A DNA stretch of 64,000 nt from Candidatus Methylomirabilales bacterium (lineage in GTDB: Bacteria; Methylomirabilota; Methylomirabilia; Methylomirabilales; CSP1-5): assembly GCA_046758505.1 (NCBI GenBank), contig JBHIAH010000006.1:1544-65543 (forward strand), read 5' to 3'. Under the pieces are notes generated by a model. That model was not told the DNA's origin, did not search any database, and saw nothing but the letters and a program-made list of their open reading frames with translations. Position numbers and translations under genes: made by a program. Positions 59,592-60,734 of this stretch are shown in pieces. Every line of letters begins with the position of its first letter. The stretch's first letter is position 1.

Positions 59592-60734
59592 TCACCGTGC
59601 CAGCCGCTTGCCCAGGAGATTCAGCTTGAACTTCCTTACTGTATCAGGCATCAGCAAGTCTCCCCTCGGACTCTCGAAGTAAAGCGCGTCGAAGGGACAT
59701 TGCACGATGCATGCTCCACACTGTACGCACTTCGCCGCCCTCGGCAGGGTCGCCACATGCCGAACCTGTTCCACCTCGAAGACGGCCGTAGGGCACACCT
59801 GCTCACACAACCCGGCTCCCTTGCACCGGTCCGAGTCCAGACGGATCCGAAGCAGTCGGTCTTCGTGGAGGCTACTTTTATAAACGGGGGTGCTCCCCAT
59901 CAGGTCGAGACTCACAATCAGGACCACCACGATTGAGCTAAGGCCCCAACGGAACATCAAGTCCCAGGAAAAATCACCGGCCAGGCCCGCATAGCCAGCG
60001 AGACCAAGCATGAAGAGCAGCCACAGGAGCAGCGAAACGCCTCGCTGGCCGAAGTCGAAGAACACGAAGCCGACATGCTTCCCCCCGGTACGGAGGCGTC
60101 CTTCGTAAAGGGGAAAGCTTAGGAACATGAGAAGAGACAGTCCCCAGACCAGACCGACAAGCGGGAGCACTCCGTCCCTCCACACTGGAAAGACGACGAG
60201 CGCACCAACGAGGGAAATGGGAAATGCCCAGGCGACGGCCATTTCCATCCGCTGCGGCCACAGGAAGCTCACCCTGCACATTTCTGCGGTCTTCTCGCGT
60301 CCGCCGCTGAGAAAGGCGGGAATTGCGGCTGCGTACACCGGTCCCCACACGACTCTCCAACCGGTCTTCCCGTGAATGATCTTTCCCTCGATACCCGTTG
60401 CAGCGAGTTGCGGCAGGATTACCTGCCGGTGGTCCACGAGGTCTTCGATACCACTCGTCTTCAGGACTGAGACGACGTTGTGATTGGTCAAATGCCCCCC
60501 CGTCGCGCCACACCATACGTTGACTCCGCGGCTGTTCGCAACCAGCAGGTATGCATCCATCCCTTCGAGGGCGCGCTTGACGCGTTCCACTGTGAGGTGG
60601 AAGTTACCGGTTAGAAGGACTGGTGAATTGCGGCCGGGGTTTCCGATCTTGACGAGACCCATCTTACACGGAAACGGAAGCACCCGCAGCAGAGTTTGGA
60701 GGACATTGACCCAGACGAAAGTAAAATGCTTCAC
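59592..60734 (-). CDS. HgcAB-like fusion protein: CFeSP/HgcA-type corrinoid-binding domain, 4-5 TM helices, and a C-terminal HgcB-like ferredoxin
   Basis: 380 aa. GLVKIGNPGRNSPVLLTGNFHLT..LLVANSRGVNVWCGATGG..ILPQLAATG..VVWGPVYAAAIPAFL parallels D. desulfuricans ND132 HgcA as I recall it (PGLYA.G.P...SPVLVTANYKLSF, and my recollection of the ND132 cap helix is roughly LDT.GINVWCAAGKG). Then hydrophobic helices at residues ~165-290, then RCKGAGLCEQVCP..CVQCGACIVQCP. Confidence 0.8.
   Translation of the reverse strand: MKHFTFVWVNVLQTLLRVLPFPCKMGLVKIGNPGRNSPVLLTGNFHLTVERVKRALEGMDAYLLVANSRGVNVWCGATGGHLTNHNVVSVLKTSGIEDLVDHRQVILPQLAATGIEGKIIHGKTGWRVVWGPVYAAAIPAFLSGGREKTAEMCRVSFLWPQRMEMAVAWAFPISLVGALVVFPVWRDGVLPLVGLVWGLSLLMFLSFPLYEGRLRTGGKHVGFVFFDFGQRGVSLLLWLLFMLGLAGYAGLAGDFSWDLMFRWGLSSIVVVLIVSLDLMGSTPVYKSSLHEDRLLRIRLDSDRCKGAGLCEQVCPTAVFEVEQVRHVATLPRAAKCVQCGACIVQCPFDALYFESPRGDLLMPDTVRKFKLNLLGKRLAR

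Follow-up and report, generated by a model that had tools for sequence, protein, structure and literature searches.

A stretch of 64,000 nucleotides of contig JBHIAH010000006.1 (positions 1,544 to 65,543 of the forward strand; assembly GCA_046758505.1), from the metagenome-assembled genome (MAG) of a Candidatus Methylomirabilales bacterium and referred to here as the window, encodes a protein of 380 amino acids (aa) in which a corrinoid-binding domain, four transmembrane (TM) helices and a dicluster ferredoxin are joined in a single chain. This open reading frame (ORF) truly belongs to the HgcAB-like fusion family, which is paralogous to the mercury methylase HgcAB, and it has been maintained by selection. 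On balance, and without great confidence, we read its product and that of the translationally coupled gene cpaM, a class I S-adenosylmethionine (SAM)-dependent methyltransferase, as probably forming a self-contained module that passes the methyl group of SAM to a corrinoid with a Cys ligand on its cobalt ('Cys-on') and from there to an acceptor other than mercury. An earlier reading of the same DNA from its sequence alone (the sequence-only reading) had pointed to three differences from HgcA and HgcB, in the cap helix, the first ferredoxin motif and the C-terminal tail, and translation of the ORF bears out all three. The family is already catalogued and the gene is a typical member of it; the three differences in essence define this family and are not peculiar to the gene. 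As far as the literature searched shows, what goes beyond earlier description is a sub-clade signature, consisting of a three-Cys putative entry cluster and a conserved basic Cys-free tail, together with a His at the tenth position after the cap-helix Cys (Cys+10), the four-helix topology and the extent of fusion to CpaM. The sequence-only reading passed over what we regard as the strongest clue, namely that CpaM is an obligatory partner and is fused to the HgcAB-like protein in many relatives.

Family assignment and conservation

Against the NCBIfam model NF043039 (HgcAB-like fusion protein), which has a cut-off of 285 bits, the protein scores 456 bits over residues 9-352 and model positions 2-350 of 350. 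Pfam and hydropathy find in it the architecture of this family, a single chain that joins a corrinoid domain, a TM domain and a dicluster ferredoxin; the Pfam matches are CdhD at residues 20-141 and the Fer4 dicluster ferredoxin at residues 297-352. Three related models score below their cut-offs: the HgcA model NF040863 gives 145.5 bits against 275, with the corrinoid domain alone matching, the HgcB model NF040864 gives 50.4 against 99, and the gamma model of the corrinoid iron-sulphur protein (CFeSP), NF003195, gives 89.9 against 306, with the C-terminal domain alone matching. The hgcA and hgcB genes of Desulfitobacterium sp. THU1 (locus L083), used as a control, gave the reverse pattern (HgcA 508, HgcB 134, HgcAB_like 212). 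A sequence search of the PDB matched 2h9a, 4c1n and 4djd to residues 20-142 (E about 1e-12), and no experimental HgcAB structure was among its matches. GenBank already holds an identical protein under the name 'MAG: HgcAB-like fusion protein [Candidatus Methylomirabilales bacterium]'.

Homologues number 2450 at E<=1e-5, with 1878 representatives at 50% identity. Across 67 homologues column identity averages 77%, and their source names are Methylomirabilales, Binatia, Gemmatimonadota, Gammaproteobacteria and Syntrophobacteraceae. The cap-helix Cys and all remaining cluster Cys residues are kept across the homologues.

Four sets were compared for the positions discussed below. These were close homologues (n = 120, identity 68-100%, 119 of them scorable for most positions), family representatives (n = 150 of the 50%-identity clusters, 125 with the cap helix), relatives fused to CpaM (the triple fusions; n = 120, 79 scorable for the first ferredoxin motif and the tail) and canonical hgcAB loci. 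The canonical set comprises 120 genome loci retrieved by a DNA pattern for NVWCAAGKG, 54 of which have a downstream hgcB with two motifs; the loci are mostly from MAGs, neither ND132 nor G. sulfurreducens is among the matches listed, and one locus was verified with NCBIfam. An independent HgcA set consists of 118 matches to a protein probe, all of them fragments of at most 210 aa and none from a validated methylator.

The CpaM partner

Upstream of the hgcAB-like gene lies cpaM, and its stop overlaps the start of the hgcAB-like gene by 4 nt. The cpaM ORF as listed begins with GTG at 61459 and encodes 242 aa. Its true start is probably Met21, at 61399, because homology to the N-terminal domain of the triple fusion P0162 (41% identity) begins at that residue and cpaM homologues, which range from 216 to 246 aa, are mostly of 221-222 aa. 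The same pair with its 4-nt overlap was found in all seven other contexts (8/8 with the window), which include MAGs of Binataceae, Syntrophobacteraceae, Binatia and Gammaproteobacteria.

Further evidence for the association comes from single-chain proteins with the order CpaM, corrinoid domain, TM domain and ferredoxin, of which a search with P0162 found at least 120 clusters with full-length coverage. P0162, P0168 and P0195 pass both NCBIfam cut-offs, with CpaM scores of 264, 210 and 218 and HgcAB_like scores of 360, 331 and 328 respectively. In the CpaM fusions both CxxCxxCxxxCP motifs are complete, and the KLNLxGxR tail that is described below is missing. The fusions P0162, P0168, P0183, P0195, P0215, P0249 and P0391-P0509 are about 540-644 aa long with CpaM at the N-terminus, many relatives of this kind being of 580-640 aa; at least one of them, P0460 from Draconibacterium sp., is named simply 'HgcAB-like fusion protein' by NCBI. 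An AlphaFold2 (AF2) model of P0162, with a predicted local distance difference test value (pLDDT) of 83 and a predicted template modelling score (pTM) of 0.73, is confident overall and has four TM helices. In a Foldseek search with this model the methyltransferase domain matched generic class I methyltransferases acting on small molecules and lipids, and the remainder matched the HgcA model 9a0b. This entry of the fold library is a computational model of HgcAB (Cooper et al. 2020) and not an experimental structure.

Neither gene has a Radical_SAM or B12-binding (PF02310) Pfam match, so that the Radical-SAM domain with its CX3CX2C cluster, which marks the cobalamin-dependent class B methylases, is absent. 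No cobalamin or SAM riboswitch was found near the cassette, the region from 55 to 64 kb having no Rfam match at the gathering threshold. Among 12 contexts there was no conserved third gene near the pair or the fused genes, and the fused genes stand alone. In the literature searched no function was found assigned to CpaM or to the fused HgcAB-like family.

An alternative role for the partner is that of a terminal methyltransferase acting on a small molecule, a membrane lipid or a quinone directly. The corrinoid protein would then assist it by redox chemistry or activation, or donate a second methyl group in sequence, and would not carry methyl between SAM and the substrate. This would suit the completeness of CpaM as a class I enzyme with all SAM motifs, as well as its structural neighbours, which include RebM, AtmM, TleD, the phosphatidylethanolamine N-methyltransferase 8ys9 (TM-score 0.75) and Coq5 (0.74), and its best sequence matches outside CpaM, which are quinone C-methyltransferases (MpqE, UbiE/MenG). 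Since canonical HgcAB takes the SAM methyl without a helper (PMC11588087), CpaM may indeed do something other than load the corrinoid. The likeness to UbiE and Coq5 is, however, generic to the fold, at 15-26% identity, and why a plain SAM methyltransferase should need a strictly conserved Cys-on corrinoid and a low-potential ferredoxin is left unexplained. We know of no precedent, and we consider it quite unlikely that CpaM works in this way.

The cap helix and His85

Residues Gly70 to His85 (60480-60527) translate as GVNVWCGATGGHLTNH. Cys75, the equivalent of HgcA Cys93 and from this alignment the presumed Co ligand, is kept in 119 of 120 close homologues, as the sequence-only reading had held for the cap-helix Cys of the window protein. 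One protein of 76% identity (P0013) has Arg in place of this Cys (NVWRAATGG), which is an error or marks an inactivated copy. The HgcA motif N[VI]WC[AS][AGS]GK (PMC10087281) is absent and NVWCGATG is found in its place. The change from AAGK to GATG had thus been read correctly, but only the Lys-to-Gly change at Cys+4 is family-wide, the Gly directly after the Cys being a private or minority variant. The region to which the changed residues had been assigned, 59697-60520, also has its end inside Asn72.

Cys+4 is Gly in all 119 scorable close homologues and in 118 of 120 triple fusions, and it is Lys in none of the 125 representatives. The corresponding residue is Lys in 117 of the 118 HgcA probe matches, which have Ala at Cys+1 in 115 cases and Gly at Cys+3 in 117. 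It is likewise Lys in the 119 pattern-selected loci (119/119), where Ala, Gly and Lys at Cys+1, Cys+3 and Cys+4 are true by construction because of the retrieval pattern. Cys+3 is variable across the family, with Thr in 103 of 119 members of the close clade, and is Gly in canonical HgcA. Gly at Cys+1 (Gly76) is a rarity among the close homologues (2/119), and representatives have it in 14/125 cases and triple fusions in 15/120. Since its codon, GGC, is a single nucleotide from the consensus Ala (GCN), Gly76 taken by itself could reflect polymorphism or error.

A further residue, not listed in the sequence-only reading, sets the family apart. At Cys+10, all scorable close homologues (119/119) have His, as do 117/120 triple fusions and 69/125 representatives, whereas in canonical HgcA the position is mainly Asp, Glu, Gly, Ala, Gln or Lys and His is outside the five commonest residues. 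His85 could serve in catalysis or as another ligand of Co. For HgcAB, Zheng et al. report a Co(II) state with N coordination, no His being close by.

The HgcA probe matches (P0271-P0390), all of 210 aa or less, include some from contigs of 200 kb to 2 Mb. Their shortness may reflect a length bias of the search, or hgcA could be split or interrupted by selenocysteine in these cases; selenoprotein HgcA/B has been suggested (PMC11588087). An apparent fusion of hgcA, with a canonical cap, to hgcB in one stop-free frame (locus L105) was rejected on hydropathy, its TM region being scrambled. The most likely cause is not a true fusion but a frameshifted read-through in stop-to-stop ORFs, or an artefact of assembly.

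The ferredoxin domain

The sequence-only reading had found Ala where the second Cys of the first ferredoxin motif is expected, and this holds (Ala307; Table 1). The Ala307 codon, GCC (59814-59816), is two substitutions from TGC or TGT. In the close homologues the position is never Cys (119/119), being Ala in 112, Val in 4 and otherwise Thr, Pro or Asp. The second Cys is kept in all 79 scorable triple fusions and in 54/54 canonical HgcB, and relatives with the long tail include both three-Cys and four-Cys forms (CxxC in P0129, P0131, P0132, P0154 and P0187). The family thus lost it at the level of a clade. Of the 54 canonical HgcB sequences, 53 have two complete CxxCxxCxxxCP motifs and the remaining one has CxCCxxCxxxCP.

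Loss of the second Cys from CxxCxxC is the classic [3Fe-4S] signature of 7Fe ferredoxins such as Azotobacter vinelandii FdI and Desulfovibrio gigas FdII, in which one motif lacks this Cys and the other is complete. The window protein has this 7Fe-type pattern, Cx5Cx3CP with CxxCxxCxxxCP, and shares it with the whole close clade (119/119). By analogy the three-Cys cluster is probably [3Fe-4S], a cluster type that is predicted only, and unlike the domain of 7Fe ferredoxins the domain here is the C-terminus of a membrane corrinoid protein. In the HgcB model of Cooper et al., Cys20, Cys23, Cys26 and Cys60 ligate the distal cluster A, and cluster B is about 15 A from Co (PMC7305189). Ala307 would align with Cys23, a ligand of cluster A, and the altered cluster is accordingly best regarded as the putative distal one.

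The second motif is complete, as had been claimed. The coordinates that accompanied the claim, 59697-59732, were one codon off and read KCVQCGACIVQC in place of CVQCGACIVQCP. This motif has CVQCGA, where C[MI]ECGA, a criterion for HgcB (PMC10087281), is present in 53 of 54 canonical sequences, a difference that the sequence-only reading had not listed.

The C-terminal tail and the membrane domain

The claim that the C-terminal tail has no Cys is upheld by the translation of residues 348-380. Within the tail G358, P363, R367, N372, G375 and R377 are invariant in 67 homologues. A KLNLxGxR-like tail is present in 119/119 members of the close clade and in 0/79 triple fusions, and it extends past the end of the NF043039 model. 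It is free of Cys in 104-105 of about 120 close homologues, the sporadic Cys residues of the others being at no fixed positions. The position of HgcB Cys73 (+12 after the second CP) is taken by Asp359, a change likewise absent from the sequence-only reading; Cys is found there in 50/54 canonical HgcB. Canonical HgcB tails have 2-7 Cys residues in 49/54 cases, and the tail Cys of HgcB (Cys94/95) have no counterpart here.

Cys-rich C-terminal tails reminiscent of HgcB, for example CSCLCRPICC and GCACAAG, are present in the distant fused members P0159, P0178, P0189, P0195 and P0197, so the loss of tail thiols is not uniform across the family. A different architecture was also seen, with an N-terminal extension of 140-210 aa that has no Pfam match ahead of the HgcAB-like part. 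In a representative search it was found in P0178, P0188, P0189, P0199, P0209, P0213, P0217 and P0226; many of these relatives have cap helices of the NIWCSSLAG type, and the tails of P0178 and P0189 contain CxC.

Four TM helices are predicted by hydropathy (Table 1), and the AF2 model of the HgcAB-like protein, which was used for helix counting, has helices at residues 159-181, 186-217, 233-252 and 257-275. With an even number of helices, the two soluble domains would face the same side of the membrane.

That the differences from HgcA and HgcB are sequencing or assembly errors, or belong to a decaying pseudogene, has next to no credibility. The source is a MAG contig and Gly76, a residue shared by 2/119 of the close clade, is one nucleotide from the consensus, but Gly at Cys+4, a residue other than Cys at position 307 and the tail motif are each universal in the close clade (119/119), which marks them as lineage signatures and not errors. 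The ORF is intact and its translational coupling to cpaM is conserved. For the first ferredoxin motif and the tail, universal conservation in the close clade refutes the error reading. The sequence-only reading had left room for a sequencing error behind the change of Cys to Ala, and this is ruled out by the two substitutions that separate the Ala307 codon from Cys and by the 119 non-Cys residues at that position.

Proposed mechanism and closest known systems

It has been shown that purified HgcAB obtains its methyl group from SAM, not from methyl-tetrahydrofolate (methyl-H4folate), and forms a Cys-ligated methyl-Co(III) species (PMC11588087). In the module that we favour, electrons would enter the HgcAB-like protein via the distal three-Cys cluster, probably [3Fe-4S], and then pass the intact proximal [4Fe-4S] cluster, whereby the Cys-ligated corrinoid would be reduced to Co(I). 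The methyl group of SAM would be loaded onto Co(I), with the SAM site supplied by CpaM, and the resulting Cys-on methyl-Co(III) would hand over the methyl, as the equivalent of a carbanion or a radical, at the membrane surface to an acceptor other than Hg(II). The type of the cluster, the direction of transfer from SAM to Co to acceptor and the role of CpaM are what we infer in this scheme.

Of known systems, the closest is the NF043039 family at large, the 'fused HgcAB' proteins from Pyrococcus furiosus, Methanococcoides methylutens, Kosmotoga pacifica and Atribacteria, with which the window protein shares a CFeSP-type domain with GxNVWC, a TM domain, a C-terminal dicluster ferredoxin and a neighbouring CpaM gene. 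To this the sub-clade of the window adds the three-Cys first motif, the KLNLxGxR tail and a separate cpaM, whereas other sub-clades have both full motifs, short and sometimes Cys-rich tails, or a CpaM fusion. The comparison was made on family members other than the P. furiosus and M. methylutens sequences themselves. HgcA and HgcB of Pseudodesulfovibrio mercurii ND132 likewise have a corrinoid domain with Cys, a membrane anchor, a ferredoxin with two clusters and SAM as the probable methyl source (PMC11588087). The window protein differs from them in its fused chain, Gly in place of Lys97, His at Cys+10, four TM helices and not five, CVQCGA, the lack of an equivalent of Cys73 and of C-terminal Cys, the three-Cys first motif and the CpaM partner. 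The large subunit of CFeSP (AcsC/CdhE; 2h9a, 4djd) has a homologous corrinoid domain and is a methyl carrier reduced by an Fe-S cluster, but its cap helix offers no Cys ligand, a TM domain is lacking, and it receives its methyl group from methyl-H4folate via a TIM-barrel methyltransferase. In TsrM, a cobalamin-dependent SAM methylase that does no 5'-dAdo radical chemistry, and in the reactivation module of MetH, SAM methylates Co(I) cobalamin as proposed here, a reaction that has been discussed for HgcAB (PMC11588087). Neither a radical-SAM nor a MetH activation-domain fold is present in the window pair, however, and its SAM unit is a Rossmann-fold class I methyltransferase.

The methyl acceptor

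Fused HgcAB proteins were described by Podar et al. 2015, with profile scores apart from HgcA, and P. furiosus made no methylmercury (PMC4646819). M. methylutens, which has the fused form, likewise made none (PMC5893877). Surveys routinely leave the fused family out or take it as a paralogous outgroup (PMC10087281, PMC7438021, bioRxiv 10.1101/2022.11.21.517362). According to PMC7305189, which cites Smith 2015, Hg methylation is abolished by the HgcB mutation C73A and reduced by 95% in the double mutant C94A/C95A. Because every HgcB thiol required for Hg methylation is absent from the window protein, and because the culture tests were negative, the acceptor would not be Hg(II), and from the sequence we infer that Hg is not a substrate of the HgcAB-like protein. 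The sequence-only reading had argued for a Cys-on carrier with a different acceptor. Its first half agrees with the retained Cys, and the missing Hg-handling features of HgcB and the clean separation by hidden Markov models (HMMs) speak for its second half, which is still an argument from sequence, no acceptor having been identified here or in the literature searched.

Several points weigh against the methyl-transfer module with a non-mercury acceptor. Gene context points to no acceptor, and canonical HgcAB, as noted above, is loaded from SAM with no accessory methyltransferase. The AF2 model of the window protein, built from 67 close homologues, is poor, with a pLDDT of 60.9, and the ferredoxin domain and cap helix fall below 50. 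The Hg-negative assays were whole-cell tests on distant members of the family and not on the clade of the window, and Podar et al. state that negative assays do not prove an enzyme inactive (PMC4646819). Some cap-helix substitutions were tolerated in HgcA mutagenesis, according to the summary in PMC10087281, and the cap-helix substitutions alone are weak evidence against Hg methylation.

The last points also bear on whether the protein is still a mercury methylase that receives Hg(II) by another route, for example as small-molecule thiolates in place of protein Cys. The protein still has the Cys-on cap core GxNVWC as well as the TM domain and the ferredoxin, which would fit such a role. The equivalent of Cys73 and the C-terminal Cys pair are missing, however, the HMM separation from HgcA and HgcB is clean, two organisms with the fused form are Hg-negative, and the family is found in lineages that are not associated with Hg methylation (Binatia, Gemmatimonadota and Gammaproteobacteria). 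The chance that mercury is the substrate after all therefore seems to us very slim.

A reductive module acting on halogenated or other C1 compounds, by corrinoid-dependent dehalogenation or methyl-halide capture and not by SAM-driven methylation, is an improbable alternative that draws on a 2026 preprint (bioRxiv 10.64898/2026.04.26.720869). There canonical HgcAB, expressed heterologously, dechlorinated CCl4, and halomethanes were proposed as ancestral substrates; a Co(I) supernucleophile together with a ferredoxin domain would suit this chemistry. The preprint concerns canonical HgcAB, however, and not the fused family. Dehalogenation also leaves the obligatory SAM methyltransferase partner or fusion unexplained, and no dehalogenase-type genes were found near the cassette in the contexts examined.

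Features and gene neighbourhood

Table 1. Coordinates in the window of the genes, domains and motifs discussed in the text.
Feature	Position	Strand	Details or basis
hgcAB-like fusion gene, 380 aa	59592..60734	minus	corrinoid-binding domain, 4 TM helices and dicluster ferredoxin in a single chain
Corrinoid domain, Pfam PF03599 CdhD, residues 20-141	60300..60677	minus	Pfam, E 2.7e-16
Cap-helix motif GVNVWCGATGG	60495..60527	minus	Cys75 (60510-60512) presumed lower axial Co ligand; Gly79 for Lys of canonical NVWCAAGK
His85 (Cys+10), family-specific conserved residue	60480..60482	minus	homologue comparison
TM domain, four predicted helices (~163-186, 187-211, 231-254, 256-286)	59877..60260	minus	hydropathy scan
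First ferredoxin motif CKGAGLCEQVCP, Cx5Cx3CP	59790..59825	minus	Ala307 at second-Cys position
Second ferredoxin motif CVQCGACIVQCP, complete CxxCxxCxxxCP	59694..59729	minus	translation
Cys-free tail FDALYFESPRGDLLMPDTVRKFKLNLLGKRLAR, residues 348-380 (33 residues)	59595..59693	minus	basic motif G-x4-P-x3-R-x-F-K-L-N-L-L-G-x-R
cpaM, class I SAM-dependent methyltransferase	60731..61399	minus	NCBIfam NF043040, 284 bits against cut-off 180; listed ORF 60731..61459

Upstream of cpaM on the same strand are MetF, a methylenetetrahydrofolate reductase (61616-62491, minus strand, 305 bits), and a DUF6134 protein (62805-63617, minus strand); the linkage of neither is conserved elsewhere. The MetF neighbourhood has a flavour of C1 metabolism, which is suggestive. 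On the other side an ORF of 240 aa (58869-59591, minus strand) abuts the hgcAB-like stop in a TGAGTG junction; it has no Pfam or NCBIfam match and is not found beside the cassette elsewhere. It is followed by a membrane protein like Rce1/CAAX proteases (57922-58587) and, further downstream, by a glutamate synthase large subunit of 1550 aa with four GOGAT domains (49424-54076, minus strand), a housekeeping context. In other contexts, a stand-alone protein with the MetH activation domain (PF02965) is found together with an Rrf2 regulator (L125, 6206-7500), SpoIIAA-like (PF11964) proteins adjoin the cassette in two unrelated cases (L003, 4859-5221; L126, 6247-6612), and LCM and PEMT methyltransferases are found near it.

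Implications

A broader proposal, which is speculative and which we consider unlikely, is that of a widespread, self-contained module for SAM-driven methyl transfer via a Cys-on corrinoid. It would methylate As, Sb, Se or Te species, as soft electrophiles other than mercury, or carbon in a membrane lipid or quinone. In the clade of the window, the Cys-free tail and the [3Fe-4S]-type entry cluster could then be adaptations to the oxic or micro-oxic soil lineages that carry it. If the proposal is true, the chemistry native to the HgcAB fold would come to light in this module, with mercury methylation as a side branch.

For metagenome surveys, hgcA-like matches of the HgcAB-like type should not be counted as mercury methylators. 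They can be told apart by Gly and not Lys at Cys+4, His at Cys+10, CVQCGA and not C[MI]ECGA, the absence of the +12 Cys and of tail Cys, and a cpaM that lies upstream or is fused. The coupling or fusion of this paralogue to a SAM methyltransferase, taken together with SAM as the donor of HgcAB, offers a testable lead on why the HgcAB fold exists.

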